From Bacillota bacterium (GTDB lineage Bacteria > Bacillota > UBA5301), in the NCBI GenBank assembly GCA_017656135.1, contig JACDOJ010000004.1, forward strand, positions 6,007 to 70,006: DNA of 64,000 nt, given 5' to 3'. Positions 22,324 to 60,156 of the stretch are shown here, piece by piece. Under the pieces are notes generated by a model that was not told where the DNA came from, did no database searches, and saw only the letters and a program-made list of their open reading frames with translations. Both the position numbers and the translations under genes were made by a program. Numbering within the stretch: the stretch's first letter is position 1; every line of letters starts with the position of its first letter.

Positions 22324-22331
22324 AGCCCTGG

Positions 22332-24522: not shown

Positions 24523-24528
24523 AAAAAG

Positions 24529-24705: not shown

Positions 24706-24797
24706 CTTCACTTGGCCCCCTTTCCCCGCCACTACTTATTGTAATTATTTATATATTATTTCTCCAATTCCTCTTTCCTAAAACCGGATAAAAAGCT

Positions 24798-24824: not shown

Positions 24825-24844
24825 AACCGGTAGGAGGTGGTTTG

Positions 24845-25576: not shown

Positions 25577-25681
25577 GGATAGAATAGCAGGGTGTGCCCA
25601 GGCTGGACCGCAGAGACTAAAGACGTCGAAGCGGAAGCCTCGCTCTACTGACCGACTGAGGTGGAGCACCAAGCCGCACGC

Positions 25682-25704
25682 CCTCCTTACCTAAGTTAAG
25701 GAGG
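25682..25704 (+). promoter_or_regulatory. Anti-SD/SD hairpin sequestering the flgG ribosome-binding site
   Basis: CCTCCTTA (25682-25689) is the perfect reverse complement of TAAGGAGG (25697-25704), with a 7-nt loop. The second arm is the flgG Shine-Dalgarno sequence, 7 nt before the ATG at 25712. Confidence 0.5.
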
Positions 25705-25711
25705 TCTTTTC

Positions 25712-26500: not shown

Positions 26501-26515
26501 ATAGGGGGCGGTAAG

Positions 26516-27481: not shown

Positions 27482-27497
27482 TTTAGGAGGATCAACC

Positions 27498-28091: not shown

Positions 28092-28103
28092 GAGGAGAAC
28101 GTA

Positions 28104-29225: not shown

Positions 29226-29237
29226 GAGTTAGGTGCT

Positions 29238-29645
29238 ATGGATTTTGATTTAAACCCACTCTCTCTGGATCTGCTGACCAAACTTAATTTCCAAACCGAC
29301 CAGGGCAGCCTCTCGCCGCGGGGGGCCTTTGCTGAACTTTTGGCCAAGGTTCAACAGGAGGGGGTAGGAGAATCCCCTGATGGTCAGCCCATGGATGATG
29401 CGCGGCTCAAAGAGGCTTGTTGTCAGTTGGAGGCGGTCTTCCTGAACATCTTGGCCAAAGAGATGCGCAAAACTGTCCCCCGAGACGGCTACTTCCAGCC
29501 CAGCCGGGCCCGGGAGCTCTTCACCGAGATGTTAGATGAGGCTCTAACCGAAGAGGCTGGCAAGGCTCAAGGCACCCAACTGGCTGAAATCCTCTACGAG
29601 CAGTTGAAACAGGCCCAAAGTAATAAAGATCATCCTCAGAAATAA
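29238..29645 (+). CDS. flgJ: Rod-binding protein (FlgJ N-terminal domain only, no glycoside hydrolase domain)
   Basis: 135 aa with the Rod_binding-type core (LKEACCQLEAVFLNILAKEMRKT.P). The ORF ends without any muramidase domain. Confidence 0.75.
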   Translation: MDFDLNPLSLDLLTKLNFQTDQGSLSPRGAFAELLAKVQQEGVGESPDGQPMDDARLKEACCQLEAVFLNILAKEMRKTVPRDGYFQPSRARELFTEMLDEALTEEAGKAQGTQLAEILYEQLKQAQSNKDHPQK

Positions 29646-29655
29646 TGGAGAGCTT

Positions 29656-38836: not shown

Positions 38837-39574
38837 ATGGCAAGACTTTCCGAAAAGGTAATTGAGCATTTACGTTTCGCAAGAAATTGGTTGGAGCGAG
38901 CTGAGGAAGAGTATTCTAAGGAACAGATCTTGGAAGGAGAACTAACTCTTTCTCTGGCTCAGGCGGAAGTCCGCCATGCCTGGGAGACTAGCAGGGGGTC
39001 GGAGCTTTCCACCACCTTGCGCGCCGCCCAGCTCTGGCGCCGGCGAATTATGCTGGTAGCAGTGGTTTCCCTGGTGGCCTGGGGTGGGTTTCACTACTAC
39101 CATAGGCAGGGCCCAGGCTATCCCGGCACCGAGTACCAGTTGGGACAGCCGGTTATGCCCGGTCGGTGGGAGAAGCAGATTGAATATAAACTGGTGATCC
39201 AGCCGCCGGTGGAAATCGAGCAGGTCTCTTCCAAGCAGACTGCCGAGCCTGAGAAGGTTCAAATCGAACCTGAAACTCAGAACAGTGTTTCTCCGGAGGC
39301 GGCAGGTGAAAGAGAAGTGCCTCAGGTTCAGGAACAACCCGCTCCTCTTCCCGTAAAAGAGGAGGCTCTTAAAGGCCAGGAGCCAGCTGTTAAAGAGGCG
39401 GAAACCCTAGAACCTGTGGAGCCGGAGCCTGAGAGCGTAAAGCCGGCCGAGCCGGAAAAACCGGAGCAGACAGCGGCTCAAGGCACAGATGCACCCGAGG
39501 AGCAGGTAGAGCCCCCACAAATCGACCTAGGGGAGCTGTTTAAAGTAGCCAATAACGCCTTGAACAGTGAGTAA
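38837..39574 (+). CDS. Single-pass membrane protein with a Pro/Glu-rich C-terminal region (possible anti-sigma partner; unknown function)
   Basis: About 75 aa of helical N-terminal segment, one TM (IMLVAVVSLVAWGGFHYY), then a low-complexity EP-rich tail (EPVEPEPESVKPAEPEKPEQ). It lies 24 nt downstream of the sigma gene. Confidence 0.5.
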   Translation: MARLSEKVIEHLRFARNWLERAEEEYSKEQILEGELTLSLAQAEVRHAWETSRGSELSTTLRAAQLWRRRIMLVAVVSLVAWGGFHYYHRQGPGYPGTEYQLGQPVMPGRWEKQIEYKLVIQPPVEIEQVSSKQTAEPEKVQIEPETQNSVSPEAAGEREVPQVQEQPAPLPVKEEALKGQEPAVKEAETLEPVEPEPESVKPAEPEKPEQTAAQGTDAPEEQVEPPQIDLGELFKVANNALNSE

Positions 39575-41340: not shown

Positions 41341-42636
41341 ATGAGGAAACACACGGGTCCATGGTGGCTTGCGCTCGGCTTGATAGTTTTACTGCTGGGC
41401 TTGCCTGGGCCCGTTTTCGCTTCTGGGGAGAGTAGTTCCTCCGAAACAATTGAGAAAATTGAAGTCAACGTAGTGATTGTCGGTAATGTACACCCAATTC
41501 TGAAGCAGCGGGTGGAACGGGCTGTCCGGGCAGTGGCCGAAAAGGCCCTCTTAGGCCGAAGTGTCCAGGAAGTGCACCGGTTTCTCAAGGAGTTCATCGA
41601 CTCCCTCTCCCAAGTCTACGTCGGTACCATCACCGGCTTTGAATTGGAGCGACTGGATCTTTTGCCTGGCCGGGTCAGCCTGGTGGAAGCGAGATTCCGG
41701 GTTTCGGAAAAGGTGGTGGAGAGGGTCACAACCTCCTGGGAATTGTCTGAGAAGGTGCCGGACTGGATAGTAGAGAGAATCACCCAGGGCCTTGAGAAGA
41801 GCTTGCGGAGGATGAGCAGGGTCTGGGAGGGTCTGCCTTTGGAGGCCTACTCTTGGGCAGGGAAGGCCATCTCCCAGTCAGCTGAGGAAATGCTTCCGGT
41901 GATCGCCGGGTTTCGCCTCCGGCTTTCTCCTGAAGTGGGCCCTACCACCCATCTCCGGGTTCGAGTGGAACCCCTGGAACCTAGAGTTTACCGGATCGAG
42001 CTGGAATCCAGCTCCTCCACCTTACCTCCGGTGATCTTGCGCCAGTTGACCCAGACACTGCGCCGGGAGGTGAATTTCCTCTCCGGCCTGCCGGTGGATT
42101 ATGTCCGCCACAACCAGGCTGAGCTTGAGAATTACCTGCGCACTCAGTTAAACCGTACTGAAGCCTTGTACAAGCTCCGGGCCGTCTCCTCTGTTCACCT
42201 GGATGTGGGTGCGGTGACCAAAGCCCAAGTGGCGGTGGAATCCAAAAACTACAAGCTCCTCTGGGAAGGTAGAATCAATTTCGGGGTCGAGGCCGATCCC
42301 ACTCTGCGCTTGGAGCTCGGCCGCTACCTCTCTCCTGTCACCCGGCTGATTGTCGGCGCGGAGATTCCGGTCAGCACTTTGAGCTTCCTTCCGGCGGTGG
42401 GAGCCGGGGTAGAGTGGCTGGGGGGAGACTTCGTCTTCTTATATCCCTTGTCCACCGGGAAACCTAAACTCCGGTACGAACACCAAATCGATTCCATCAC
42501 CCGCTTAAGACTGGAACGGGATTGGTCCGAGGACTACTTTGAGCTGGCCTATGGAATCAAAAATACCCCCTATTTGACTACCGAGATTGTCGGCAACAAT
42601 TCGGGGATCTGGTTCAGATTGGTTGGCAGTCTGTAA
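41341..42636 (+). CDS. Secreted protein of unknown function; C-terminal ~150 aa show an alternating beta-strand pattern (possible small OM barrel)
   Basis: It has a signal peptide (WWLALGLIVLLLGLPGPVFA) and an alpha/beta N-terminal part. The C-terminal strands have alternating hydrophobicity (LRLELGRYL, RLIVGAEIPV, AVGAGVEWL, DFVFLYPL, RLRLERDW, YFELAYGIK, GIWFRLVGSL). I do not recognise a family. Confidence 0.6.
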   Translation: MRKHTGPWWLALGLIVLLLGLPGPVFASGESSSSETIEKIEVNVVIVGNVHPILKQRVERAVRAVAEKALLGRSVQEVHRFLKEFIDSLSQVYVGTITGFELERLDLLPGRVSLVEARFRVSEKVVERVTTSWELSEKVPDWIVERITQGLEKSLRRMSRVWEGLPLEAYSWAGKAISQSAEEMLPVIAGFRLRLSPEVGPTTHLRVRVEPLEPRVYRIELESSSSTLPPVILRQLTQTLRREVNFLSGLPVDYVRHNQAELENYLRTQLNRTEALYKLRAVSSVHLDVGAVTKAQVAVESKNYKLLWEGRINFGVEADPTLRLELGRYLSPVTRLIVGAEIPVSTLSFLPAVGAGVEWLGGDFVFLYPLSTGKPKLRYEHQIDSITRLRLERDWSEDYFELAYGIKNTPYLTTEIVGNNSGIWFRLVGSL

Positions 42637-43163: not shown

Positions 43164-43188
43164 TCCATACGCGGTGAGGGGGGAGAGG

Positions 43189-44286
43189 ATGGCCAAAAGG
43201 GTATTACAGTTTTCAGCAGTGCTGTTCGCTGGTGCTCTAATGGTGCTGGCAGCCTTTTGGTTCTCCGGTGACATCCTCACTGCGAAGCTGGACCTTTCTA
43301 AGGAGAGGGATCCTTCCTTCTTGGAGCCGGTAGATGCAGCTTCTGTTCCCGCCGCTTTCGAGCCTGTTTCAGCGCCGGTGGCCGTGGTCCGGCTCAGCGA
43401 AGTACTGCCGCTACACCCTGCCTGGCCTAAGCTCCAAGAGCTGGAGCAAAGGCTGTCCAGGCTCCAAGCAGGTGCCGGTGGTAATGAGAAGCCTGAGGAC
43501 GAGCCCCTGGAGGAAACCCTGGCCTTAGAGGGAGAGCGGCTCACCCAGGAGTACCAGGCTCAGCTGGAGGCCGAAGAAAAGGCGGCTTGGAAGCTGACGG
43601 AGCAGAAGATTGAGCGGAAAAAGGCAGAGCTCAAAGAGGAGCTCCAGAGCAAGCTGGAAAGCTTACGCCAGGAGCTGACCCAAGAGTTGGCCCAGAAGGG
43701 GCAAGAGATCCAAGGGGAGTACCAGGCCAGGATTTTGAGTTTGCGGGTTAAGATGGAGCTCTTGGATGGTAAAGAAGACCCGGCTCTCGCCGAGAGAATC
43801 AGCGAGCTCCAGAAGGAGATCAAGTATAAGCTGGAGGGTTTGGAAAGGGAGTACCAGGCCAAGGTCGGCCGACTGGAAGAGCAGCTGGCCGCAGAATACC
43901 AGGAGAGGCTGAAAGGGTACTCAGAGGATTTAATTGCTGAGACCCAGGCCAAGTTGGAGCAGAAACGAGCTGAGCTTGAAGCTGAACTCAAAGAACACCT
44001 GGAGTATCTGGTCAGAGAGCCTGTAACTCTGCCGGTTGTAGGACCTGAGGATACCGGCGGCCTGGCTCAGCTGGCCCAGGAGATTGCCCAGCTGCGCACG
44101 GAGATGCTCGGGGATATCCGGTCCCTCGGCGAGCGGGTGGCCTACCGCTTAGGCCTGGAGACAGTGGTGTTGACAGAAGATGCCGTCTTTGGCGGGAAAG
44201 ACATCACCGAAGAGGTTAAAGAAGAGATATCCAAGAAGGAAGGGAGTCCTATTGGTGCAGCAGAAAGAGCCGGTAACACTCAGTGA
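43189..44286 (+). CDS. Long Skp/OmpH-like coiled-coil protein (365 aa) with repeated EYQA heptad-rich segments
   Basis: N-terminal anchor, about 250 aa of E/K/L/Q coiled coil with a recurring EYQA(Q/R/K) motif, and an OmpH-like ending (VVLTEDAVFGGKDITEEVKEEI). Confidence 0.55.
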   Translation: MAKRVLQFSAVLFAGALMVLAAFWFSGDILTAKLDLSKERDPSFLEPVDAASVPAAFEPVSAPVAVVRLSEVLPLHPAWPKLQELEQRLSRLQAGAGGNEKPEDEPLEETLALEGERLTQEYQAQLEAEEKAAWKLTEQKIERKKAELKEELQSKLESLRQELTQELAQKGQEIQGEYQARILSLRVKMELLDGKEDPALAERISELQKEIKYKLEGLEREYQAKVGRLEEQLAAEYQERLKGYSEDLIAETQAKLEQKRAELEAELKEHLEYLVREPVTLPVVGPEDTGGLAQLAQEIAQLRTEMLGDIRSLGERVAYRLGLETVVLTEDAVFGGKDITEEVKEEISKKEGSPIGAAERAGNTQ

Positions 44287-45325: not shown

Positions 45326-45379
45326 GAGGGAGATTCTGCCGGGACAGGATACTACTGCTTTCCTGCCGAAATGGTGGTT

Positions 45380-46465
45380 ATGAGGATCCTGGACCGGTAT
45401 TTTTTCAGCGAAGTTATAGGCCCTTTTGTCTTGGCCTTGACGGTCATAATCATTTTGATGATCAGCGGGGTGCTCTTCGAGTTAAGTGATTTACTGATCT
45501 CGAAGAGAGTTCCGCTTTCTGTCATTTTGCGCCTTTTTTCCTACCAACTCCCCTGGGCCACTGTGGAGGCCCTGCCCATCGCAGTGCTGGCGGCAGTCTT
45601 GATCGTCACCGGCCGGCTGGCCGCTGAGAATGAGCTCACCATCATCAGGTCAGTGGGGGTCAGCCTCAAACGCTACCTAGTTCCGGCCCTGATCTTTGCC
45701 CTTGCCATCAGCATCCTCAGCTACTACTTAAGTGAAGAAGTCCTGCCTCAGGCCAATCACGCCTTTCAAAACACTGTTCGCCGCATTGTCTTGAAGGATG
45801 CGAGCCCGGAGATCGAAGAGGATGTCTTCTTCCGGGCCGGCAAGGAATACTTCTTCTACATTGGGCAGGTTGACCCGGCCAGTTTAGAGATGCGGCAGAT
45901 CATGGTCTACCAGCTGCGCCAGGAGGGCTACCCCAGGTTAATCACTGCCGCCTCCGGCTACATCCGGGACGGTTCCTGGCACCTCACCGACGGAGTGATG
46001 CGGGATATCGGAGAGGACGGCTTCGTCTCCGATGAGGTGAAATACTCCAGCCTCACCCTGGAGCTTGGAGACGGCCTAGAGCATTTCTTTGCCAACCAGA
46101 AGACCACTCGGGAGATGACCAGGGCCGAACTTTTGGAAAACATCCATCTCTTTGCCGAGAGCGGGGTGAATCTGCGCCCCTTCATCGTCGATTACCACCT
46201 GAAACTGGCTTCTCCTTTGGCCAGCCTGGTTTTTGTCCTTTTTTGCCTTCCCTTGGCCCTGCGTTTCCTGCGCCTGCCCAGGTATTCCCGGTTTTTGGCC
46301 CTGGCGGCCAGTGTTGCCTTGACTCTGTCCTACTATCTCCTGACCCCGTTCTGCCGGTCCCTTGGAATCAACGGGATCATCCCGGCGGTTTTAGGGGCTT
46401 GGCTGCCGGTGCTTTTCCTGGGTTCAGTGGGGACTCTCCTCTATACCCGGCTGGACTCCTTTTAG
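45380..46465 (+). CDS. LPS export ABC transporter permease, LptF/LptG (YjgP/YjgQ) family
   Basis: The MRILDRYFFSEVIGPF start and six-TM architecture with a central periplasmic domain are typical of LptF/G. Only one such gene is in the window. Confidence 0.85.
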   Translation: MRILDRYFFSEVIGPFVLALTVIIILMISGVLFELSDLLISKRVPLSVILRLFSYQLPWATVEALPIAVLAAVLIVTGRLAAENELTIIRSVGVSLKRYLVPALIFALAISILSYYLSEEVLPQANHAFQNTVRRIVLKDASPEIEEDVFFRAGKEYFFYIGQVDPASLEMRQIMVYQLRQEGYPRLITAASGYIRDGSWHLTDGVMRDIGEDGFVSDEVKYSSLTLELGDGLEHFFANQKTTREMTRAELLENIHLFAESGVNLRPFIVDYHLKLASPLASLVFVLFCLPLALRFLRLPRYSRFLALAASVALTLSYYLLTPFCRSLGINGIIPAVLGAWLPVLFLGSVGTLLYTRLDSF

Positions 46466-46475: not shown

Positions 46476-48653
46476 ATGGGGAAGAAACTTATCCTGATCT
46501 TGAGCACAGTGATATTGAGCTTGACAGTGGGCTGCCTGGCCCAGGCCGAGGGTAAGCCGATCAAAATCAGCGCTCAGTCCTCTTTGGCCTGGGAGCTGGC
46601 TGAAGGGGTGCTCACAGTCACCGGTGACGTTCACCTGGAATATGAGGATTTCACCCTAAACTGCCAGCGCCTGGTGGTGAACACCGAAACCCAGGTCTTA
46701 GAGGCCTTCCAGGATGTGCGCTACCAGGATCCAGACGGTGAGATCACCGCAGACTATTTCCGCTACGATACTCGAAGCGAGACCGCCAGCTTCCGCGCTT
46801 TCTCTGCTGTCTTCACCGGTGATGGACTGGCTACCGACGCCTATCTCCACGGCGAGCGGCTGACCACCAAGGGAGAAGACGCTTTTGTCAGCGGTGCCAC
46901 CTTCAGTGGCTGCGACCGTGAGAACCCCCACTACCACCTGAAAGCAGTGAAGATCGAGTATTATCCCGGTGAGCGGCTGGTGGCTCGGAAGGTCTCCTAC
47001 TACGAGGGGCACTTCAAACTCTTCACCCTGCCGGTCTTGGTGGTTTCCCTAAAAGAAAGCCGTTGGGAGGCGCCGAAGCTCGGTTACAACTCCGAGGACG
47101 GCTGGTACATCAAAACAACCTACAACTACTACCGGAACCCCAATTCTTCCGGCTCTCTCTTCCTGGACTACTACCAAAAAAAGGGGTGGGGTACCGGTTT
47201 CAAACACCAGTACAGGTGGGAGCGAGTTCTCCCTGCTGCCGGTTGGTTCTACTTCTACACCAAAGAGAACGGGGATAGCGGCACACCACCCTCCTACCAC
47301 ACAGCCTTCTCTCTGGAACCGGAGCTACCTGAGGCCTGGCGGGGGAAGTTGGAGGGAGAGTACAAAGCCGACTACTACCAGGGCCAGCTGGAACACAACT
47401 GGGGCGGCCGGGCCAACTTGAGCTGGAACCGGCCTAATCAGCGGGTGGCCTTGGATTACAGCCTGCTCAAGAAAAACCCGGCTGAGCTCTACCCCGGCAG
47501 TGTCTACCAGCGCACCCGGGCCTCGGTATCTGTGGAGAGCCGGCCCCGGCCGGACCTGCGGTATGCGGCTACCACCAACTTCTTCACCCAGAGCCGGGTG
47601 GACTATCCGAAAGATGATCTTACAGCCTTTGCTCAGGCTTGGGTGAGCCAGGACCTGAACGATTACCGGCTGCAGTTCAAGGTTGAGCATCAGTACAACC
47701 CGGTCTCCCCTGCTTCCGATGAGATTCCGAACTGGAAGAGTTATACGGTCTTGCCGGAGGTGAGGTTGACCACTAAGCGCTTGAGCCTAGGGGGACGAAC
47801 CCTCCCGCTCAGGGCCAGTATCAGTGCCAGCCGGGTACAGGAGGAACCAGGGAACCTATCGACTATGAAGGCCAGTGGACAGCTAGTCCTCACCGGTTTG
47901 AACTATCGGCCGGCCCCTGGGTCCTGGTTGAACTTCACCGCCAGTGCCACCGGCAGCTACTACGATACTAACCACGGCCAGGCCCAGATGACCACCAGGG
48001 CCATTTACCGCCAGCAGTTTTCACCCTATTTCAGGAGCAGTTTGACCCACAACTGGACCGGCCGGGTGGGGGTCTCCCCCTTGACTTATGATCTGACCCA
48101 ACCGGTTCACAATCTGCAAGGCCGTCTCGATTACACCACCGGCCGCTGGAGGGCGGGCGCCAGCACCGGTTACGACCTCCTGGCTCTTCAGCCTGAAGAT
48201 CTTGAGGCAGAGGTAAGTTACCGCCACAGCCAAAGGCTTTACTCTTCAGCCCAGGTGGCTTACGCCTTACCTGAAGGTGCTTGGGAATACGTCAAGCTTT
48301 CCTTGCGCTATGACGCCGGGAAAGAACGGGAGCTGCAGGGAAGCATCTACTATGACTTTCTCCAGGAGACGTGGCAGACGGTCAGCCTCTCGGCCCGTCA
48401 GCGGTTGAACCCGGACTGGCTCCTTGAGGCCGGCATAGATTGGGACGAAACCTACGGCGGCCGCCTGCGCCGGGGAGAAGTCAGCTTAACTAAAGACCTG
48501 CACTGCCGGGAGCTGCGGATTTCCCTCGATGCGGTTAGGAAGGAGATCTGGTTCGAGTTGATCTTCAAAATCCTGCCGGGAGAACCCTTAAGGTTAGGCG
48601 CCTCTGACCGGAGGTTCCTGGTGGACCTGGAGTTCTTGGAGGGGGAGGTTTAG
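46476..48653 (+). CDS. lptD: LPS-assembly outer-membrane protein LptD (OstA N-terminal domain plus beta-barrel)
   Basis: Signal peptide and an OstA-like jellyroll (L...GDV.LEY.DF.L.C..L........LEA..DV.Y.D). The ATFSGC......HY.L.A..I.YYPGERLVA..V.....G..LF.LPV motif is followed by an aromatic-rich barrel. Confidence 0.8.
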   Translation: MGKKLILILSTVILSLTVGCLAQAEGKPIKISAQSSLAWELAEGVLTVTGDVHLEYEDFTLNCQRLVVNTETQVLEAFQDVRYQDPDGEITADYFRYDTRSETASFRAFSAVFTGDGLATDAYLHGERLTTKGEDAFVSGATFSGCDRENPHYHLKAVKIEYYPGERLVARKVSYYEGHFKLFTLPVLVVSLKESRWEAPKLGYNSEDGWYIKTTYNYYRNPNSSGSLFLDYYQKKGWGTGFKHQYRWERVLPAAGWFYFYTKENGDSGTPPSYHTAFSLEPELPEAWRGKLEGEYKADYYQGQLEHNWGGRANLSWNRPNQRVALDYSLLKKNPAELYPGSVYQRTRASVSVESRPRPDLRYAATTNFFTQSRVDYPKDDLTAFAQAWVSQDLNDYRLQFKVEHQYNPVSPASDEIPNWKSYTVLPEVRLTTKRLSLGGRTLPLRASISASRVQEEPGNLSTMKASGQLVLTGLNYRPAPGSWLNFTASATGSYYDTNHGQAQMTTRAIYRQQFSPYFRSSLTHNWTGRVGVSPLTYDLTQPVHNLQGRLDYTTGRWRAGASTGYDLLALQPEDLEAEVSYRHSQRLYSSAQVAYALPEGAWEYVKLSLRYDAGKERELQGSIYYDFLQETWQTVSLSARQRLNPDWLLEAGIDWDETYGGRLRRGEVSLTKDLHCRELRISLDAVRKEIWFELIFKILPGEPLRLGASDRRFLVDLEFLEGEV

Positions 48654-49315: not shown

Positions 49316-50029
49316 GTGGACCGAGTGCTTGTTTTCAGTGTTGTGCTGGTGCTCATACTGGGATTAGCTGGGCTTCCCGTTGCAGCTGACAGCGAATTAC
49401 GGATTAAAGTATTGGAGAACAAGGAGTTTAGGATTAACGGAAATGAGGTTCATATCGTCGGCAAGATCGAAATCACCAAAGGAGATCTCTTCCTGACCGC
49501 TGGGGAGATCGTCTACAACTCAGAGGAGAAGACGGCGGTGATCACCGGGGAACCCTATTTGAAGACTAAGGACGCCGAGGTGGACGGCCAGCGGATTGAG
49601 GCCGATTTTGAGGAGGATGTCTTCACCTTCACTGGTTCCGTCCGCGTCCAGCAGGCCGAGAGGGTGGCCCTGGCCAACGAGGTACACGTGGATAACGCCA
49701 AGCACATCTACCTTCTCTTCGGCAACGTCCTGGTGACTGAGAAAAAGGACGATAAAGAACTTCGGGCGGAGGAAGTCCTGATTGATTCAGAAAGCGATAC
49801 CATCGAGGTTAAAGGGCCGGTGGAGCTGAGTTTCATCCTGGCTAAAGACCAAGAAGAAACCCCGGAGGAAACCGACGCCCAGGAGGGGACTGCTGGGGAG
49901 CCGAAGGCGGAAGCAAAAGAAGAGCCTCCCCCCCAAACTACTGCTGACGAGGTTTATGTGCAGGTAGAAGACGTGTCAACAAGGCCGCTGTCGGCAGCAG
50001 AGGAAGGAAGCAGTACAGAGCTGTATTAA
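49316..50029 (+). CDS. lptA: LptA/OstA-like periplasmic LPS transport protein with an acidic C-terminal tail
   Basis: Signal peptide and an OstA-type repeat pattern (VHIVGKIEITKGDLFLTAGEIVYNSEEKTAVITGEPYL, FTFTGSVRVQQ, LFGNVLVTEK). The last ~90 nt overlap the convergent MFS gene. Confidence 0.7.
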   Translation: MDRVLVFSVVLVLILGLAGLPVAADSELRIKVLENKEFRINGNEVHIVGKIEITKGDLFLTAGEIVYNSEEKTAVITGEPYLKTKDAEVDGQRIEADFEEDVFTFTGSVRVQQAERVALANEVHVDNAKHIYLLFGNVLVTEKKDDKELRAEEVLIDSESDTIEVKGPVELSFILAKDQEETPEETDAQEGTAGEPKAEAKEEPPPQTTADEVYVQVEDVSTRPLSAAEEGSSTELY

Positions 50030-51152
50030 CTCCCCAGGCATCGGCGATGGCTCCGATAGCCGGGAGGAAGAGGGAGACACAGGCGGAGACCAGGCCGATC
50101 ATCAACCCTGAGGCCAAACCGGCATTGGCCGGGAGCAGGCGCTGCACGACGACGACCGTGACCGGAAGGCTGCAGTTGACGGCGGCCCCGGCCAGCGCCA
50201 AAAAGATCCACTTCCACGGACCGGCGGTCCGGTAAAAGCCGAAGAGCAAGAGCGTACCCAAAAGCAGGGAGCCGGCAATTACTTTGCGGGCTCCTATTTT
50301 ATCGTGCAAATATCCTCCGACAAAGCCCGCGATGGCTCCGAAGAAGAGATAAACCGAGACCATCTGGCCGGCGGTGACCACAGGATAACCCAGCTGGACC
50401 AAGAAGGCCGGCAGGAAGGTGTTAAGCCCCTGCATGACCCAGGTGCGCAGGAATACGATGAGGTTGATGGCCAGGACTGGGACCCAGACTTTCCCCAGGT
50501 TCTTCCTGAGAATGGCCAGAGACTCCAGTCTGGAGGTGGCTCGGGGGTTTTCATCCACCACTCGCCCCAACCCAGAGAGGCTCATATACAAGGTAACCAC
50601 AAGGACCGGCGCCAAAAGCCAGAGGGTGGTCACGAGGCCCCCGGCTTCCACCAGAGGAACGATTAAGAGTGGGGTCAGGGAGAACCCCACATTGCCGGCG
50701 ACGAAAAAGATGCTCATCCACAGCCCTTGCTGCCTTGCAGGTACCACCTTGGGCATCAAGGTCGCTCCCAAGGGGTGGTAGAGCCCGGAGCCCAGCCCTC
50801 CGAAGAAGGCCAGTGTTATTAGGGCCCACAAGGAGCCGGCGATTCCTAAAAGGCTCATGGCCAAGCCGATCCAGGCGGCAGCCCAAATCAGAAGGATTCC
50901 CCGGCGCCGGTGATCCACGGCCATCCCGAAGAAAGGTTGGGTGAAGGCGGAAGAGGCGGAAAAGACCGCCATTATCCCGCCTAAAGCAGTATTGCTCAGC
51001 CCGTAGTGGGTGCTGAGGAAGGGTAGTAGCGGTGCCAGTATGTTGGCCATGAAGTCGTTAAGGAGGTGCCCTGCGGCGATGGCCCCTCCTATCAAGGCTC
51101 CGGTGCTAGCCGGATTTGGTTGGATTTGAACAAGTTCGATACTCTTTTCCAT
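49938..51152 (-). CDS. MFS-family transporter (12 predicted TM segments)
   Basis: 404-aa polytopic protein with MFS-like loop motifs (G...D...RR). It is the only minus-strand gene within the OM/LPS cluster. The substrate cannot be inferred. Confidence 0.85.
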   Translation of the reverse strand: MEKSIELVQIQPNPASTGALIGGAIAAGHLLNDFMANILAPLLPFLSTHYGLSNTALGGIMAVFSASSAFTQPFFGMAVDHRRRGILLIWAAAWIGLAMSLLGIAGSLWALITLAFFGGLGSGLYHPLGATLMPKVVPARQQGLWMSIFFVAGNVGFSLTPLLIVPLVEAGGLVTTLWLLAPVLVVTLYMSLSGLGRVVDENPRATSRLESLAILRKNLGKVWVPVLAINLIVFLRTWVMQGLNTFLPAFLVQLGYPVVTAGQMVSVYLFFGAIAGFVGGYLHDKIGARKVIAGSLLLGTLLLFGFYRTAGPWKWIFLALAGAAVNCSLPVTVVVVQRLLPANAGLASGLMIGLVSACVSLFLPAIGAIADAWGVNTALYCFLPLLPTAALLTRLLPAHKPRQQ

Positions 51153-51211
51153 AGCTTCATACTTATTTCCCTATTTTCAGGGAATTACCTGCTAGTAGCT
51201 AATTTCTTCTA

Positions 51212-51220
51212 TGCTATAAT
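51212..51220 (+). promoter_or_regulatory. Extended -10 promoter element TGCTATAAT upstream of the large ABC-associated gene
   Basis: TGnTATAAT was read directly at 51212-51220. A GAGGGGG RBS (51234-51240) and a GTG at 51249 follow. Confidence 0.4.
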
Positions 51221-51248
51221 GGCACTTGAGAATGAGGGGGAAAATAGC

Positions 51249-53720
51249 GTGGCTACTCCGGTTATTCGGCTCAAAAATAGATTTTTCTCGTTCTGGCGAC
51301 AGGATTCTTTCATCAAAGACATTTTTTCCCTGATTATTATCACAATCTTGATTGGCGGAGCCATCTCTTTTGGCTTGGCCTGGGTGGTTGATGCCTATTT
51401 CGGCGATACCGTCACCGGCCTCATCGGAGATGTGGGCCAGTATGATCTGATCCTGCATGTCCGGGAGGATGCCGCCGATATGGCCAAAAAGGAGCTGGAG
51501 AAGATCATCGCCCAAAACTTTCCAGGGGCAGAGTACAAGCAGGCTCCCACCGTGGCTGGGAGAGCCAACTTCCTCTTGGCCCTGCCTGATGAGTATAAGA
51601 ACCGGGAGGTGCTGGAGAATATCGACTCCTATTTCAGCACTTTGCCGGGAGGCAACGGTCACACCTTCATTATTGCACCGGTGGTTACCGTCCGGGGCGT
51701 TCAGTTCGGGGCCAAGGGTATGCTGATCAAGAGGCTCCAGGAGCTACCTGGGGTTAAGTTTGCCTTTGTCAGCGGTAGCAACGTGCTGGCTGTTCTCACT
51801 GAGGATGCTGATTCCAAAGCCATCACTCAAAAGGCCCAAGAGATTTTGGATGATTACCGGACCATCGAGGTTCGTTTCCCCATGGGTTACCAGATTAAGG
51901 ACATCTCTGCCACCGGAGAGCGGCTGGTTATGGCCATCCAGGACCGAATCCAGCCTAAGCTGGTCAAAGATGTTACCCTCTCTGAAGAAACCAGCGATAT
52001 GCAGGCCTTCTTGGATGCCCTGGTGGAGATGAAGAGATTTCTCTTAGGGTACGCTTCTGAAGTGGAGATCAAACTGGATCCTTCAGCCGCCCTGCGGGTC
52101 GGGGACCGTGTGGTTCTCCAGGGAGCCTCTCCGCAGCCGTTGGTGGTTGGGGACACCCTACGCCCCGATAACCTGGTGGTGGATATCATCTCAATCCAAG
52201 GTGATACGGCTAAGGGTATCATTACTCAAGGTGATATTAGTGATATCGCCCACGGGCAGTTGGAGTTTTCCGCCGAGAGTGGACAAGGCCCGATTGTAAC
52301 CAAGTCCTACCGCCTGGAACGGGGGACCGATATCGGCCAGCTGGTAGGTGAAACCATCATTCATAATGATCGTTTCGAACTGATGTTGGCCATTGATGAA
52401 AGCATCAAGCTTTTGGAAGAACTGGAGGTCATGGCCGCCGAGGCTGATGAAACCAGCCAGCACCTTTTGGCCACCTTGGATGCTTATGAGGATACTCTGG
52501 ACCAGATTGCCAGGGTAGAGGAAACCTTGCGCTCAGTCAACCAGAGCCTGGACGGTCCCTTGACTCAGCTGGGCCGTCTTAATATCGATGAACTCGTTTC
52601 CACCTTGAAAAACACCGGTAAATCCATCGATTACCTATTGGCCACCATGGGCTTGGTAAATCCGCCCAGCGCCGGTCAGTTGGCCGATGTGGAGCAGAGC
52701 TACTCAGAGGTTCAAGGCCGGACCGGTCTGGACCAAGTCTTAAAAGACATCAACCCAGTAGTTCAGCTCTTGCGGAAGTTCCGGGAACGGATCAATCAGT
52801 TTGCCCTCCAGGTGGATACTTTCGGCTCCTTGGCTGAGAACTCCGACCTGGTTCACCGCTTGATGCAGGATATCGGAGGAGCGACCACGTCGGCGCTCTC
52901 GGCCATGGAGCAGGTGGATGTAGACGCCCTGCGCCAAGACCTTAAGGATATTACCGCTCGCTTAAAGGCCATCGGTAATCTGGACACTGAATTGGTGCGC
53001 CGACAGATGCAGGATGTCCGCAGCACCCTGCCGGATCTCACCGATGAGGAGATCGGTCGTTCAGTCCGGCTCATCGACAGGTACATCGGTGGTGAGGTCA
53101 TTCCAGGAGAACGCTTGGAGATCTTGGTGGACTCCGGGGTCAGGGCTGATGAGGTCAAGCCGGTGATCGCCGAGATGCTGGGGACTGAGGACTTCTCTGT
53201 CTTGGAGGCGCCTATCGGAACCCTCCAGCCTGATGTCAGGGGTATTCTCTTCAGCGTGCTCCGGGAGGTTCGCTCCACCATTGCCGGCCTGACAGCGGTG
53301 GTTTTTACCCTGATTATCCTCTGGCTGGATCACGCCCTGATCGTCACCGCCCTGCGGAAGTTGATTCCCAGCCGCAAGCAGGTGGCGAAGGGGTGGGCCC
53401 GCATCTGGCAGCGGTGTTTGCCTGACCTAGCCGCACTGTACAGCGGGGCAGTAGGTGGCACTGTTCTTCTCGGCAGCTATTTGCTGTCCGGAGGAGCCAT
53501 ACCTCTGCTTTCACCGGTGCACATCCTGATCATCGGTGTGCTGGCTGGATTGGGAACAGCGGCCTTGTCTGAGCGGATTAGCCCGGTCTCCGAAGCGGAG
53601 ATTTACGCCGGCTTATCCCTGGGTATGCGCAAGACTGATATTCTCAGGGAAATTGTGATTCCTGAGGGCCGGCCTGGGATTTCTAATCTCTTGAACCGGC
53701 GTAAGCTACGGTTTCAATAA
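51249..53720 (+). CDS. Uncharacterised 4-TM envelope protein: TM1, ~690-aa extracytoplasmic domain (ferredoxin-like and long helical segments), TM2-4, then a C-terminal EAA-like ABC coupling loop
   Basis: TM1 is SLIIITILIGGAISFGLAWVV, and three C-terminal TMs follow. The basic loop RKLIPSRKQVAKGWARIWQR fits a cytoplasmic location. The last ~40 aa (SEAEIYAGLSLGMRKTDILREIVIPEGRPGISNLLN) fit the EAA/G-x9-I-x-(L/I)P coupling motif of HisM/GlnP-type permeases. The start was set to the GTG at 51249, since the ORF-track start at 51066 overlaps the divergent MFS gene. Confidence 0.65.
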   Translation: MATPVIRLKNRFFSFWRQDSFIKDIFSLIIITILIGGAISFGLAWVVDAYFGDTVTGLIGDVGQYDLILHVREDAADMAKKELEKIIAQNFPGAEYKQAPTVAGRANFLLALPDEYKNREVLENIDSYFSTLPGGNGHTFIIAPVVTVRGVQFGAKGMLIKRLQELPGVKFAFVSGSNVLAVLTEDADSKAITQKAQEILDDYRTIEVRFPMGYQIKDISATGERLVMAIQDRIQPKLVKDVTLSEETSDMQAFLDALVEMKRFLLGYASEVEIKLDPSAALRVGDRVVLQGASPQPLVVGDTLRPDNLVVDIISIQGDTAKGIITQGDISDIAHGQLEFSAESGQGPIVTKSYRLERGTDIGQLVGETIIHNDRFELMLAIDESIKLLEELEVMAAEADETSQHLLATLDAYEDTLDQIARVEETLRSVNQSLDGPLTQLGRLNIDELVSTLKNTGKSIDYLLATMGLVNPPSAGQLADVEQSYSEVQGRTGLDQVLKDINPVVQLLRKFRERINQFALQVDTFGSLAENSDLVHRLMQDIGGATTSALSAMEQVDVDALRQDLKDITARLKAIGNLDTELVRRQMQDVRSTLPDLTDEEIGRSVRLIDRYIGGEVIPGERLEILVDSGVRADEVKPVIAEMLGTEDFSVLEAPIGTLQPDVRGILFSVLREVRSTIAGLTAVVFTLIILWLDHALIVTALRKLIPSRKQVAKGWARIWQRCLPDLAALYSGAVGGTVLLGSYLLSGGAIPLLSPVHILIIGVLAGLGTAALSERISPVSEAEIYAGLSLGMRKTDILREIVIPEGRPGISNLLNRRKLRFQ

Positions 53721-53734
53721 GGAGTTGAGCTAAG

Positions 53735-54547
53735 GTGGGAACTATACACCTAGAGATAAAAAACTTACGGAAGAAGTACGGCGACTTTGAGGCCGTACGC
53801 GGGGTCAACCTGGAAGTGGCCCGGGGAGAAGTCGTGGTCATCATGGGTCCTTCAGGGTGTGGAAAGTCTACAGTTATTCGCTGTATCAACCGGCTGGTGG
53901 AACCCACTGAGGGGGAGATCTGGTTCGACGGTCTTCCCGTCCATGACCTCTCTCAAAAGGAGATGGTTTCCCTCCGGCGCAGGATCGGGTTTGTCTTTCA
54001 GAACTTCAACCTGATTCACCGCCTCAATGTACTCCAGAACGTCATGCTGGGCTTGATCTACGCCGGGGTCGACAAGGACCAGGCTTTGGAACAAGCCGAA
54101 GAGGCCCTGCGTAAAGTAGGTTTACTTCAGGCAGCCGGCAAACGCCCAAGTATGCTCTCCGGAGGCCAGCAACAGCGGGTGGGCATCGCCCGGGCTCTGG
54201 CCCTTCAGCCGGAGCTGATGCTTTGGGATGAACCCACCGCCTCTTTGGACCCGATTCTGGTCCGGGAGGTCCTGGACGTCATGGAGGATTTGGCTCAGTC
54301 CTCCGGAACCACCATGGTCATTGTTACTCACGAAGTTCCCTTCGCCCTGCGGGTAGCCGACCGAATCGTCTTGATGGCCGAGGGACAGGTGGTTGAAGAA
54401 GGGGCACCGGATGAGATCTTCCGCCTACCTCGTTCAGGAGTGGGCCACAAGTACCTGGAGATTATCACCTCCCAGTACCATGATGTTACCGAAATGAGAA
54501 GGAGAATTCTGCCAGGCCACCGAACTGAAGGTAAGATTATTGTTTAG
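53735..54547 (+). CDS. ABC transporter ATP-binding protein (GlnQ/HisP-like subfamily) with a short C-terminal extension
   Basis: Walker A (GPSGCGKST), IRCINRL.EPT.GEI, the Q-loop (FQNFNL), the signature (LSGGQQQRVGIARALA), Walker B (LLWDEPTSALD) and the H-loop (VIVTHE) are all present. Confidence 0.9.
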   Translation: MGTIHLEIKNLRKKYGDFEAVRGVNLEVARGEVVVIMGPSGCGKSTVIRCINRLVEPTEGEIWFDGLPVHDLSQKEMVSLRRRIGFVFQNFNLIHRLNVLQNVMLGLIYAGVDKDQALEQAEEALRKVGLLQAAGKRPSMLSGGQQQRVGIARALALQPELMLWDEPTASLDPILVREVLDVMEDLAQSSGTTMVIVTHEVPFALRVADRIVLMAEGQVVEEGAPDEIFRLPRSGVGHKYLEIITSQYHDVTEMRRRILPGHRTEGKIIV

Positions 54548-57809: not shown

Positions 57810-58961
57810 ATGAAGATCATGATCATAGCCGGAGAGCCCTCCGGTGACCTGCACGGCTCCAGATTAGCCAAGGCTTTAAAGGAGAAACGCCCTGATGTGC
57901 GCCTCTGCGGCATGGGCGGCCCCCAGATGCAGGAGGCCGGGGTCAAACTGCTCTTTGACCCTACCAAACTGAGCACTATCGGCTTTGTGGAGGCCTTAAA
58001 GAACTTCAAGGTTCTCCGGAAAGTCATGTTGAAGCTGGCTGATTTCATCCGCCAGAACAAGCCCAATGCCATTGTCTTCATTGACTACCCCGGCTTCAAC
58101 ATGCGCCTGGCCCGAATGGTCAAGGACGAGGGGGTACCGATGATCTACTACTTCAGCCCGTCGGCTTGGGCTTGGGGCAAATCCCGGGCAGAGAAAGTGG
58201 CTCAGACTATCACCAAAGTGGCTTCGGTTTTTCCTTTTGAAGCCGAGGTTTATCAAGAGGCCGGTGCCGACGTTACCTTTGTAGGCCATCCTCTCCTGGA
58301 TATCGTTAAACCCAGCATGAGCCCTGAGGAGGCCAGGGAGTATTTTCAGCTGCCTCCGGGAGCCCCGGTGGTGAGCCTTTTGCCGGGCAGCCGCCGGCAG
58401 GAGGTGGACTTGCTGCTTCCGGAGATGCTCAAGGCCGCCGAGCTCATCAAGGCCAGGGTGCCCGAGGTGCGTTTCCTTTTGCCCAGAGCCGGGTCCATTG
58501 ACCAAAAAATCATCGCCGGTTGTCTGGCCAAAGCCGCGGTTCAAGTCAAGGTGGTCGAGGGCAAGACCTATGATGCCATCAACATCAGCCAGGCGGCGAT
58601 TGCCGCTTCCGGCACGGTCACTTTGGAAGCGGCCTGTCTGGGGACGCCTATGGTCATTATCTACAAGCTGGCTACCTCCACCTACCTCTTAGGGAAGATG
58701 CTGGTTAAGATCCCCCGTGTGGGGTTGCCCAACATCATTCTGCATCGGATGGCCGTGCCTGAGTACATTCAGAACGACGTGAAACCGGAGATCATCGCCA
58801 GCGACATCACCCGGATGCTCACAGACCAGGCCTACTCTCAGAAAATAAAAGACGACCTGGCGGAGGTCGTACGCAGACTGGGCCGTCCAGGGGCAGTAGG
58901 GCGCACTGCTGAACTGGTCTTAGCTCTGGCAGAGAATCAGCGCCTCCGGAAGCAGATGTAA
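57810..58961 (+). CDS. lpxB: Lipid-A-disaccharide synthase (GT19)
   Basis: MKIMIIAGEPSGDLHG..L..AL, GMGG..M..AG, IDYPGFN.RLA, YY.SP..WAW, LLPGSR..E and ASGT.TLEAA..G.PMV..YK motifs are present. Confidence 0.9.
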   Translation: MKIMIIAGEPSGDLHGSRLAKALKEKRPDVRLCGMGGPQMQEAGVKLLFDPTKLSTIGFVEALKNFKVLRKVMLKLADFIRQNKPNAIVFIDYPGFNMRLARMVKDEGVPMIYYFSPSAWAWGKSRAEKVAQTITKVASVFPFEAEVYQEAGADVTFVGHPLLDIVKPSMSPEEAREYFQLPPGAPVVSLLPGSRRQEVDLLLPEMLKAAELIKARVPEVRFLLPRAGSIDQKIIAGCLAKAAVQVKVVEGKTYDAINISQAAIAASGTVTLEAACLGTPMVIIYKLATSTYLLGKMLVKIPRVGLPNIILHRMAVPEYIQNDVKPEIIASDITRMLTDQAYSQKIKDDLAEVVRRLGRPGAVGRTAELVLALAENQRLRKQM

Positions 58962-58977: not shown

Positions 58978-60156
58978 GTGAACATTATTCTCACATCCAA
59001 CTCCCCAGGGGAGATATCAGGCTGGGTCAAACCGGTGGTGGGAGAGATCAGCCGCGGGTGGCCCGGGGCCAACGTCTACCTTTTCATCTTGCCTTGTTCT
59101 TTTGCCAGCGGGCAGGAGTGCAGTGTGGCCGCCAACATTTCTGGCATCAAAGAGGTCTTTCCCGCCCGGGACTACTGGCGCCTGGTCCTCACCGGTCGGC
59201 GCCCTGCCGGCTACCAGCACGCTGAGGAGGGGTTGGTCCTCTTTCTCGGGGGAGACCAAACCCACGCCGTACTCATTGGTTCCCGGCTGCAGTATCCGGT
59301 CTATGTGTACACTGAAGGGCGTGCCCTCTGGCCGAAGCGGGTTCAGAAGTATTTCGTCCCTTACCCTGAGGCCTTGGCCAAGGTGAAGGAGAAGGCCCCT
59401 GGCAAGGGGGAGCTGGTTGGCAACATAATGCTGGATGCAGTGAAACCCACCATGAGCCGGGATGCTTTCCGCCGGGATTTGGGGCTCAAAACCCATGAGC
59501 CTCTGGTGGCCCTCTTTCCAGGGAGCCGTCCGGGAGAGTTTAGCTACATCGCCGGTTTCTTTTGTGAGGCCACTGAGCTTCTGAAGAGGGAGCTGCCGGC
59601 GGTTAGATTCGTGGTCAGTTTGTCTCCCTTCATCCCTGATGCCCTGGCCCGAGAGGCTTTCCCTCAAGACAGGTTTCGGGACATGATTTTGCTTAAGGGA
59701 AGACAGTATGATATCATGCACAGCGCCGACTTGGCTTTGACCATTCCGGGGACCAACACAGCCGAGATGGCTTTCGAGGGTCTGCCGATGGTGGTTTCCG
59801 TGCCCTTAAACCGTCCGGAGCTGATTCCCTTGGAAGGACTCCCCGGTCTCATCGGTGGTCTGCCGCTTATCGGGAAACCCCTCAAACGCCGGGCGGTTCA
59901 GGCGGTGAACGCCAAGTTAAAGTACACGGCTCTCCCCAATATCCTGGCCAAAGAGGAGATCATCCCTGAACTGAGAGGGGATGTCACCCCGGCTGATCTG
60001 GCCCAGGCGGCCCATGAGCTTCTCAGTGATGAGGAGAGACGGAGGGAGATGGCCGAGCGCCTCAAAGCCGTGATTGGACCCGCCGGAGCAGCCAGGCGTC
60101 TGGTGAATGCGCTGCAAAAACTGACAGGATACGGTGATTACGTCAATGAAATTTGA
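58978..60156 (+). CDS. LpxB-like GT19-family glycosyltransferase paralogue (function unknown)
   Basis: It has the same architecture as LpxB (LFPGSRPGE, ...PGTNTAEMAFEGLPMVV..PLN, LPNILA.EEI.PEL). The N-terminal GEPSGD motif is replaced by NSPGEISGW. The GTG start follows GGGAGGAG. Confidence 0.65.
   Translation: MNIILTSNSPGEISGWVKPVVGEISRGWPGANVYLFILPCSFASGQECSVAANISGIKEVFPARDYWRLVLTGRRPAGYQHAEEGLVLFLGGDQTHAVLIGSRLQYPVYVYTEGRALWPKRVQKYFVPYPEALAKVKEKAPGKGELVGNIMLDAVKPTMSRDAFRRDLGLKTHEPLVALFPGSRPGEFSYIAGFFCEATELLKRELPAVRFVVSLSPFIPDALAREAFPQDRFRDMILLKGRQYDIMHSADLALTIPGTNTAEMAFEGLPMVVSVPLNRPELIPLEGLPGLIGGLPLIGKPLKRRAVQAVNAKLKYTALPNILAKEEIIPELRGDVTPADLAQAAHELLSDEERRREMAERLKAVIGPAGAARRLVNALQKLTGYGDYVNEI

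Follow-up and report, generated by a model that had tools for sequence, protein, structure and literature searches.

Within a 64,000-nucleotide (nt) stretch of DNA from a Bacillota bacterium (the window; GenBank assembly GCA_017656135.1, contig JACDOJ010000004.1, positions 6,007 to 70,006 of the forward strand), two adjacent genes encode an 823-residue membrane protein, here called BIG, and an ATPase of the ATP-binding cassette (ABC) type, and both are embedded in a cluster of genes for lipopolysaccharide (LPS) and the outer membrane. The comparisons described below led us to a reading, to which we give a probability of about one half, in which the two proteins form an ABC mechanotransducer that is derived from a type I importer and acts in the periplasm on a task connected with LPS or with the lipids of the outer membrane. 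The evidence that carries this reading is the membrane topology of BIG and its C-terminal coupling loop, the kinship of both proteins to type I importers, the layout of the predicted periplasmic domain, and the constancy with which the pair accompanies LPS genes.

Membrane topology and coupling loop of BIG

The original prediction, made from the DNA sequence alone, described BIG as one N-terminal transmembrane helix (TM), a very large domain, and three C-terminal TMs, and this arrangement was borne out by hydropathy, by counts of lysine plus arginine residues, by natural fusions to a nucleotide-binding domain (NBD), and by a predicted structure. The TMs were located at residues ~24-46 (TM1), ~676-700 (TM2), 727-747 (TM3), and 756-777 (TM4); hydropathy alone rose over threshold at ~24-46, 676-700, and 756-777, and TM3 was recognized as a helix in the model. 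Five lysine plus arginine residues were counted at the N terminus, seven in the TM2-TM3 loop, and eight in the C-terminal tail, compared to none either directly after TM1 or in the TM3-TM4 loop, and the averages over 101 family members matched the pattern of the BIG protein of the window. In six family representatives an ABC NBD is fused to the C terminus through a Pro/Ala/Gly linker of 30 to 45 residues, and for this reason the C terminus of BIG was assigned to the cytoplasm; with three TMs intervening, the large domain therefore lies outside the cytoplasmic membrane. A cytoplasmic location of this domain was checked for specifically, and both the positive-inside counts and the C-terminal NBD fusions placed it outside. 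Judged from the sequences, the N terminus is cytoplasmic, TM1 is inserted N-in, and a domain of about 615 residues (~residues 60-675) is extracytoplasmic; the earlier figure of ~690 residues was too high.

BIG carries an EAA-type motif, EAEIYAGLSLGMRKTDILREIVIPEGRPG, at residues 782-810, which follows the pattern EAA-x3-G-x9-I-x-LP of the EAA loop and is on the cytoplasmic side. Only 13-14 residues remain after the motif, near the 15 or so that had been predicted, and both the motif and the short tail are kept throughout the family, with the consensus E-x-x-A-G-x-[AS]-L-G-[LMF]-x4-[IL]-[ML]-R-E-I-V-[IV]-P-x-[GA]-R-P and, in the subfamily with fused NBDs, a textbook V-E-A-A-R-A-x-G...P motif. 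The C-terminal 46 residues are the best-conserved part of BIG, with a mean top-residue frequency of 0.59 versus 0.31-0.46 elsewhere. The homologues in all 46 genomic loci stop at the same point, 13-14 residues past the motif, with no TM5 or TM6, and BIG thus ends without the two or more TMs that follow the EAA loop in the five-TM minimal core of a type I permease. Within the membrane part, TM2 contains an invariant D694 and a near-invariant H695 (~53328-53333) in the motif L-D-H, close to its cytoplasmic end, and TM4 contains a near-invariant GxxxG (G763/G767).

Kinship of BIG and the ATPase to type I importers

The ATPase had been assigned to the amino-acid-importer subfamily (GlnQ/HisP-like), and the rankings obtained with both NCBIfam and PDB sequences agree with that assignment. 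The best NCBIfam score was to GlnQ (254.7 bits; cutoff, 379), and TcyN scored 228.7 bits (cutoff, 406) and HisP 215.5 bits (cutoff, 466); the score of 255 bits against GlnQ compares to 189 bits against FtsE and 176 bits against LolD. The GlnQ, TcyN, and HisP scores are below the cutoffs of these equivalogs; the ATPase falls into no named equivalog, and the GlnQ/HisP/ArtP group is its closest kin rather than a group to which it belongs. Its best relatives in the PDB are amino acid ABC ATPases, 4u00_A (239 bits) and 4yms_J (231 bits), together with ArtP and HisP. The Walker A motif GPSGCGKST, the signature LSGGQQQR, the Walker B motif and D-loop LMLWDEPTASLD, and the H-loop VTHE are all intact, and the ATPase is predicted to be active.

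For the membrane protein, 63 family members were scanned against Pfam. BPD_transp_1 (PF00528) was matched at E<1 by 27 of the 63, with a best E value of 2.7e-4. The matches covered profile positions ~47-119 of 184, while among these members a second membrane family never turned up repeatedly. The listed member scores (16.5-19.1 bits) do not reach the Pfam cutoff for membership (26.4 bits), and the C-terminal fragment of the BIG protein of the window gave no match to BPD_transp_1 even at E<=10. A profile of residues 648-823, made from 36 members and compared with 177,635 PDB sequences, produced seven matches at E<=10, of which the best five were MetI (two), the Art permease, and PotC (two). The E values were 0.011 for MetI, 0.081 for the Art permease 4yms_D, and 0.31 for PotC, and the alignments span the last TM of BIG (TM4) and the EAA loop; MetI runs for 68 residues, or two TMs, beyond the aligned stretch, whereas BIG does not. 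When a model of the C-terminal part was used as the Foldseek query, the top three matches were PotC, MetI, and the Art permease, followed by MalG, SugB, OppB, and DppB, all with E values of 0.5 or greater and TM-scores of 0.35 or less, which are not significant. The 4YMS complex supplies both the permease matched by BIG (4yms_D) and a relative of the ATPase (4yms_J). Four independent tests of remote similarity thus agree on type I importers, none of them significant singly. Because the BPD_transp_1 matches, the PDB profile search, the Foldseek ranking, and the relatives of the ATPase all point the same way, we conclude from these comparisons that BIG and the ATPase both go back to an importer of type I, of the polar-amino-acid/MetI kind, with the membrane part of BIG representing only a fragment of the ancestral permease.

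Compared to solved type I importers (Art(QN)2, 4YMS; MetNI, 3DHW and 6CVL; PotABC), BIG is alike in that its EAA loop and the preceding TM can be aligned and in that its four TMs share their in/out order with the first four of a six-TM permease, and its ATPase is nearest to amino acid importer ATPases, including that of 4YMS. It differs in lacking the last two TMs and in having a periplasmic insertion of ~615 residues between TM1 and TM2. The setting also differs, as the pair is in an LPS cluster rather than a nutrient uptake operon and has no neighboring binding protein: no gene for a substrate-binding protein was found in the conserved neighborhood (49 loci, ~10 kb on each side), and no binding-protein fold was found for the periplasmic domain among the best 50 Foldseek matches. 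Canonical EAA-containing permeases were looked for in the window and 50 loci, and none were found.

These comparisons bear on whether the pair could still be a true transporter, in which two four-TM halves form a pathway, the periplasmic domain serves as a built-in receptor, and a compound related to LPS is imported or flipped. The descent of both halves from amino acid/MetI-type importers, the high conservation of the EAA loop, and the invariant D694 and near-invariant H695 within TM2 would all suit such a transporter, as would the analogy with importers that have binding domains fused to their permeases. Conversely, every genomic homologue lacks the two TMs that come after the EAA loop in type I permeases of known structure, MetI among them, the periplasmic domain is unlike the substrate-binding proteins in the Foldseek top 50, and the conserved neighborhood holds no binding-protein gene, and we therefore judge a transporter to be decidedly unlikely.

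Association of the pair with LPS and outer-membrane genes

A homologue of the ATPase of the window (>45% identity) starts no more than 400 nt downstream of BIG in 49 of 49 loci. Genes of the lpt or lpx series are present on the same strand in 46 of these loci, and the remaining three lie on contigs no longer than 3.2 kb. The order LptF/G-LptD-LptC-LptA-BIG-ATPase-LpxC-FabZ-LpxA-LpxI-LpxB is kept from 66% down to ~20% identity and is found also with the most distant protein among the matches listed (P0161) and in Carboxydochorda subterranea, in which a fusion of BIG and ATPase stands between LptC-LptA and LpxC, the same position as that of the two-gene pair. Members in contexts without LPS genes were looked for, and none were found, as lpt/lpx genes were present in 46 of 46 loci with enough flanking sequence. 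Taken together, and as far as gene order and sequence can tell, BIG and the ATPase are a dedicated ABC pair that is strictly associated with LPS genes and is a fixed part of the LPS/outer-membrane cluster of the Limnochordia.

The outer-membrane cluster of the window is of the kind typical for diderm Firmicutes. It starts with genes for the flagellar L and P rings, TamB, a sigma factor, BamA, OmpH, LpxD, one LptF/G, LptD, LptC, and LptA and continues, after a gene for a major facilitator superfamily (MFS) transporter on the opposite strand, with BIG, the ATPase, LpxC, FabZ, LpxA, LpxI, LpxB, an LpxB-like protein, and MsbA. The pair had been described as being between lptA and lpxC, which is correct for its place in the cluster and for 46 of 46 informative loci; in the window itself, the MFS gene intervenes. 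This gene (49938-51152, minus strand) is convergent with lptA and overlaps its 3' end by 92 nt. Because only one of 49 related loci (L003) has an MFS gene at this place, it looks like a lineage-specific insertion that has parted BIG from the lpt genes.

In proteobacterial operons, lptB often follows lptC-lptA, and BIG and the ATPase occupy that place. The identity of the ATPase as LptB was considered and rejected because related genomes carry a separate, genuine LptB, encoded beside LptG, which scored 349-356 bits against TIGR04406 in two of them (L007 and L012); the ATPase itself is GlnQ-like, and TIGR04406 (cutoff, 240 bits) was outside its 25 best NCBIfam families, the lowest of which scored 169 bits. 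The pair thus shares a cluster with the LptB2FGC system and differs from it in that BIG has no LptF/G or beta-jellyroll match and in that relatives encode LptB and LptG separately.

The Mla system provides a second comparison within the envelope of diderm Firmicutes. MlaFEDB and the MlaEFD system of Veillonella parvula, the latter with a long helical MlaD (PMC10665443), resemble the pair in being an ABC module, in a diderm Firmicute outer-membrane cluster, with a long helical periplasmic extension. They differ in that BIG is a single polypeptide versus MlaE plus MlaD. No MlaE or MCE homology was found for BIG by Pfam, and MlaE was at Foldseek rank 16 with an E value of 7.2; three members matched the helical family Mce4_CUP1 weakly and Mce1C was matched at an E value of 0.29, both of which fit coiled-coil similarity. 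Since Mla has been reported in only a few Limnochordia (PMC10665443), it is plausible that the pair might be a functional substitute for Mla in lipid trafficking. The accompanying statement in the original prediction, that diderm Firmicutes lack Lol, was right only in part, as the Halanaerobiales possess LolA and LolCDE (PMC5007114).

Predicted structure of the periplasmic domain and comparison with type VII systems

An AlphaFold2 model of BIG was built from a 101-sequence alignment, and its secondary structure was assigned by DSSP. The model of the whole protein had a mean predicted local distance difference test (pLDDT) value of 89.3 and a predicted TM-score (pTM) of 0.65, and a separate model of the C-terminal part had a pLDDT of 90.6 and a pTM of 0.80. 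The domain layout derived from the model is given in Table 1. The ferredoxin-like beta-alpha-beta segments that had been read from the sequence appeared as strand-helix pairs in the model (strand 67-72 and helix 73-90; strand 622-628 and helix 633-644), and a predicted helical or coiled-coil stretch of more than 200 residues corresponds to the helical region 374-613. The two units of residues 60-210 (71 and 80 residues) have an essentially constant length across the family and contain the conserved motif G-x-x-G-E-Y-D-L-I-L-H-V-R, and this region gave local Foldseek matches to ACT domains, metal-binding ferredoxin-like domains, and RND/SecDF proteins. The unit just before TM2 is also of near-fixed length (~49 residues) and has the conserved motif LP.L.DEEIGRS..LID.YIGGEVIPG. 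Other parts vary more: the beta-rich domain is missing from ~20 of the 101 aligned members, the helical arm ranges from 88 to 281 residues, and the segment with TM2 to TM4 ranges from 81 to 146 residues, mostly from loop insertions, with a short helix (716-723) predicted in the TM2-TM3 loop of the model. The tip of the arm (~469-490) is variable, has low model confidence, and has no conserved motif.

The two units that adjoin the membrane are each joined to a long TM helix in the model, the first in the order helix 21-59, strand 67-72, helix 73-90, and strand 95-102 and the second in the order strand 622-628, helix 633-644, strand 650-655, and helix 663-705. This connectivity, as read from the secondary structure of the model, is Porter-like. 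In type VII systems, the Porter/Sabre periplasmic domain consists of beta-alpha-beta units that are joined to the TM1 and TM2 helices and flank an insert (PMC5985334). Foldseek with the whole model gave no global match; what it found was local and weak, with TM-scores not exceeding 0.1. SecDF (E value, 7.8e-5) and MmpL5 (E value, 1.1e-4) headed the list, and AcrB-type pumps, ACT-like domains, and helical-bundle toxins came after them; SecDF, MmpL, and the AcrB-type RND proteins carry porter-type subdomains.

BIG therefore invites comparison with the type VII systems MacB, LolCDE, FtsEX, and YbbAP. It shares with them a four-TM topology in which a large extracytoplasmic domain separates TM1 from TM2, long TM1 and TM2 helices that in the model are each joined to a beta-alpha-beta unit around a large insert, and a setting in envelope biogenesis, with work expected outside the cytoplasmic membrane. 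The differences are that the conserved coupling element of BIG is the C-terminal EAA loop rather than a TM2-TM3 helix and that the NBD is C-terminal in the BIG fusions and N-terminal in MacB. A type VII-like topology combined with a coupling element of another type and with the loss of the last two TMs of an importer had been proposed at the outset, and all three parts of that description stand. No FtsX or MacB_PCD match was found for the BIG protein of the window, and neither was one of the 25 families that recurred most in the scan of 63 members, beyond which a family was matched by at most 2 of the 63.

A helical arm that follows a beta domain also raises the possibility that BIG is the inner-membrane part of a tripartite pump of the MacAB-TolC kind, in which the arm replaces the adaptor and docks on an outer-membrane channel. 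The hairpin-like form of the arm recalls adaptor proteins, and unannotated open reading frames (ORFs) of the cluster, such as 41341-42636, could encode outer-membrane proteins. A dimer would, however, provide two arms only, versus the hexameric tube of an adaptor; no adaptor or TolC family match was found for BIG or its conserved neighbors; the beta domain is dispensable in ~20% of the members; and the arm tip is unconserved. We consider such a pump very improbable. The only matches obtained for the helical arm in the sequence and Foldseek searches were to coiled coils or helical bundles.

The BIG family and its distribution

BIG matched nothing significantly in Pfam, NCBIfam, or the sequences of the PDB, a full-length family profile compared with PDB sequences gave coiled-coil noise only, and a check for a full-length match to a characterized family by Pfam, NCBIfam, PDB sequences, and Foldseek likewise found none. 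A word-indexed search of 5.8 billion proteins returned 13 relatives, all unnamed or "hypothetical," and the same 13 proteins and nothing new were returned when the search was repeated with the alignment as the query. HMMER, run exhaustively over 1.84 billion representatives of clusters at 50% identity, found 255 at E<=1e-3; what is said here of their names and lengths rests on the best 150 of the 255 matches. Among the matches listed, the lengths ranged from ~570-1000 residues for full-length proteins down to short fragments, and the names were generic at best. With one genome taken per GTDB species, 46 loci were obtained, all from metagenome-assembled Bacillota, with labels that include Limnochordia and Candidatus Darwinibacter.

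In a high-GC branch of the Limnochordales, BIG and the ATPase are one chain of 930-1000 residues, in which the EAARAxG motif is canonical and the linker is rich in Pro, Ala, and Gly. One such fusion (P0130, WP_324716177.1), annotated just as "ATP-binding cassette domain-containing protein," is encoded at positions 10001-12904 of locus L047 in the complete genome (CP141615.1) of Carboxydochorda subterranea L945T, a cultured member of the Limnochordia with an outer membrane visible by transmission electron microscopy. A further protein (P0013, 595 residues) joins the N-terminal half of a BIG homologue to FeoB_C/Gate (SpmB-like) sequence and is most likely a chimera of assembly or gene calling and not a genuine domain combination. 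No description of the family was found in the literature on LPS and ABC systems of Limnochordia, on outer-membrane clusters of diderm Firmicutes, or on EAA loops together with mechanotransmission. Antunes et al. in 2016 reported other unannotated cluster genes for the Negativicutes and Halanaerobiales, with this pair not among them (PMC5007114).

This distribution was used to weigh the notion that the pair is a decaying or miscalled remnant of an amino acid importer, fused to unrelated sequence and without function, an idea to which the truncated permease domain and the lack of a family assignment lend themselves. The ORFs are intact in 46 species-level genomes and the family comprises ~255 clusters at 50% identity, and its domain lengths are strictly kept, several residues are invariant, the ATPase motifs are intact, and the structure is confidently predicted. 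Because these conservation data contradict decay, the remnant reading is effectively refuted.

Proposed mechanism and its alternatives

A type-I-derived mechanotransducer would work as follows. BIG and the ATPase would assemble as a dimer of heterodimers, (BIG)2(ATPase)2, in which BIG would contribute the helices of a type I permease through the EAA loop and a giant periplasmic insertion between TM1 and TM2. Closure of the NBDs, driven by ATP, would be passed to the EAA helices, from there to the long TM1 and TM2 helices, and then to the periplasmic base formed by the beta-alpha-beta units. The base and the helical arm would move as a result, by analogy with mechanotransmission in MacB, LolCDE, and FtsEX, here on a scaffold derived from type I. 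Coupling would run through the EAA loop and not through the TM2-TM3 loop, given that the EAA segment is the best conserved and the TM2-TM4 segment varies in length. Transfer of a solute across the cytoplasmic membrane would most likely not be performed by the complex, because two core TMs of the permease are gone and no binding protein accompanies it. The work would concern the handling of LPS or outer-membrane lipids, as read from the position between lptA and lpxC. We infer the dimeric stoichiometry, the mechanotransmission, the substrate, and the contact with the outer membrane. We also put forward, tentatively and at well short of even odds, that the pair is an unrecognized ABC architecture, half of a type I permease turned mechanotransducer, which serves an outer-membrane lipid step in the Limnochordia such as the extraction and delivery of phospholipid or LPS or the release of lipoproteins.

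The mechanotransducer logic is shared by an alternative in which the pair is a regulator or signal transmitter similar to FtsEX, which moves no lipid itself and instead, by ATP-driven motion of its periplasmic domain, switches on or positions an enzyme of the periplasm or membrane or reports the state of the envelope to LPS synthesis. The architecture gives the same logic, FtsEX uses coiled-coil partners where BIG has a built-in helical arm, the absent permease helices suit a role other than transport, and lpxC comes next downstream of the pair, after a gap of 11 nt with no convincing terminator. No partner enzyme is consistently adjacent, however, as Lpt and Lpx proteins are the sole conserved neighbors; the tip of the arm varies and lacks a conserved motif; and no FtsX homology was found by the Pfam scan or Foldseek. 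Such a regulator appears to us unlikely.

Four points weigh against a type-I-derived mechanotransducer that acts on LPS or outer-membrane lipids. The likeness to type I importers is below threshold throughout, with Pfam scores under the gathering score, PDB E values of 0.01 or greater, and Foldseek E values of 0.5 or greater. MacB, LolC, and FtsX appear neither in the 50 Foldseek matches listed for the whole model nor among the 25 for the C-terminal model. No part of BIG is less conserved than the helical arm, which varies roughly threefold in length and is therefore a poor fit to a rigid ruler that spans the envelope. Finally, synteny indicates association with LPS genes and not a substrate, and the place beside lpxC could equally mean regulation.

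Gene calls, control signals, and other genes of the window

A longer ORF (51066-53720, plus strand) encloses the BIG gene as called (51249-53720). The start at 51066 was set aside because a strong Shine-Dalgarno sequence and a database protein of 823 residues with 100% identity to BIG (P0001) both back the GTG at 51249. A scan for promoter consensus sequences left the possible extended -10 element TGCTATAAT unflagged and found no good -35 box, and hence no sigma-70 promoter with one, upstream of BIG. The stop codon of BIG is followed after 14 nt by the start of the ATPase gene, which is separated from the lpxC start by 11 nt, and no convincing terminator was found in this second interval.

Table 1. 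Coordinates of the BIG and ATPase genes, their control signals, and the BIG domains in the window
Feature	Position	Strand	Description
Possible extended -10 promoter element TGCTATAAT	51210..51218	+	Direct reading of the sequence; weak
Shine-Dalgarno GAGGGGG	51233..51239	+	Read in the sequence; serves the GTG start at 51249
BIG gene	51249..53720, stop TAA included	+	ORF; 823-aa membrane subunit of the ABC module; start GTG
BIG residues 4-59	51258..51425	+	Cytoplasmic amphipathic helix 4-18; 39-residue TM1 helix 21-59 reaching the periplasm
BIG residues 60-210	51426..51878	+	Two ferredoxin-like beta-alpha-beta units, the first directly after TM1
BIG residues 211-270	51879..52058	+	Alpha/beta linker with invariant EMKRFL motif
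BIG residues 271-372	52059..52364	+	Beta-rich domain; optional module, 0-153 aa
BIG residues 373-613	52365..53087	+	Helical arm (helices 374-613): 61-residue first helix, several return helices
BIG residues 614-662	53088..53234	+	Conserved beta-alpha-beta-beta unit immediately before TM2; strand 622-628, helix 633-644, strand 650-655
BIG residues 663-777	53235..53579	+	TM2 (helix 663-705, 43 residues), variable basic loop, TM3, 10-residue outer loop, TM4
BIG residues 778-823	53580..53717	+	EAA-type coupling loop (three short helices) and 14-residue basic tail
Shine-Dalgarno AAGGAG	53719..53724	+	For the ATPase gene; overlaps the BIG stop codon
ABC ATPase gene	53735..54547	+	ORF; 270 aa; Pfam ABC_tran 3e-39; importer type

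Among the remaining Lpt genes, the window contains one LptF/G gene (45371-46465), and no LptB was seen within it. Related loci have an LptB gene and another LptG-like gene further downstream in the cluster (L007, 14605-15324; L012, 17422-19243; L048, 20894-21851, after MsbA), and those of the window genome probably lie past position 64000. The LptD candidate (46476-48653, 725 residues) has weak similarity only to the N-terminal part of OstA/LptD, with no Pfam match for its presumed C-terminal barrel, which suggests that the LptD of this lineage is divergent in sequence. No LptE candidate was noticed in the window. Genes for LpxB and a divergent LpxB-like protein are in tandem (57810-58961 and 58978-60156), the latter having a partial Pfam LpxB match of 82 bits, and the tandem is kept in most related loci, including those of C. 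subterranea (L047) and L048.

Three ORFs of the cluster have no Pfam match: 38837-39574 (245 residues); 41341-42636 (431 residues), which is between BamA and OmpH; and 43174-44286 (370 residues), which has an N-terminal hydrophobic segment and a Glu/Lys/Leu-rich probable coiled coil and overlaps the start of lpxD. These are candidate envelope proteins and may be partners of BIG. Elsewhere in the window, at 21259-33083, sporulation-type genes (for SpoIID, a SpoIVB-like peptidase, and a peptidase of family M23) are intermixed with those for TamB and for FlgH and FlgI of the diderm-specific flagellar L and P rings, and the combination of sporulation genes with diderm flagellar and TamB genes is consistent with a sporulating diderm Firmicute. 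A 762-residue ORF without a Pfam match (6826-9114, minus strand) is in a stretch with a G+C content of 0.60 versus ~0.55, beside a GT4 glycosyltransferase gene.

Discussion

Current classification assigns the membrane domains of ABC systems to just a few folds, seven in all. The family described here would pair the coupling element and ATPase of type I with a layout of four TMs and a large ectodomain that is otherwise known only from type VII. By the sequence and fold searches used, BIG is set apart from BPD_transp_1, the MacB/FtsX family, LptB2FG, and Mla. We regard the pair as a variant within ABC systems rather than something categorically new, and it is of interest to specialists in ABC transporters and the outer membrane. 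It is relevant to the repurposing of ABC engines and to the question of the minimal membrane domain that can couple ATP hydrolysis to work outside the cell. Because a fused version exists in cultured Carboxydochorda subterranea, biochemistry and cryo-electron microscopy are feasible now.

Diderm Firmicutes are central to the debate over the transition from diderm to monoderm cells, and the traffic of lipids and lipoproteins to their outer membrane is poorly known. The pair is a good candidate for a step in building or maintaining the outer membrane of the Limnochordia. If this proves true, it would represent an independent evolutionary solution to the problem of feeding or policing the outer membrane, for which other diderms use nonhomologous systems such as Mla and Lol.

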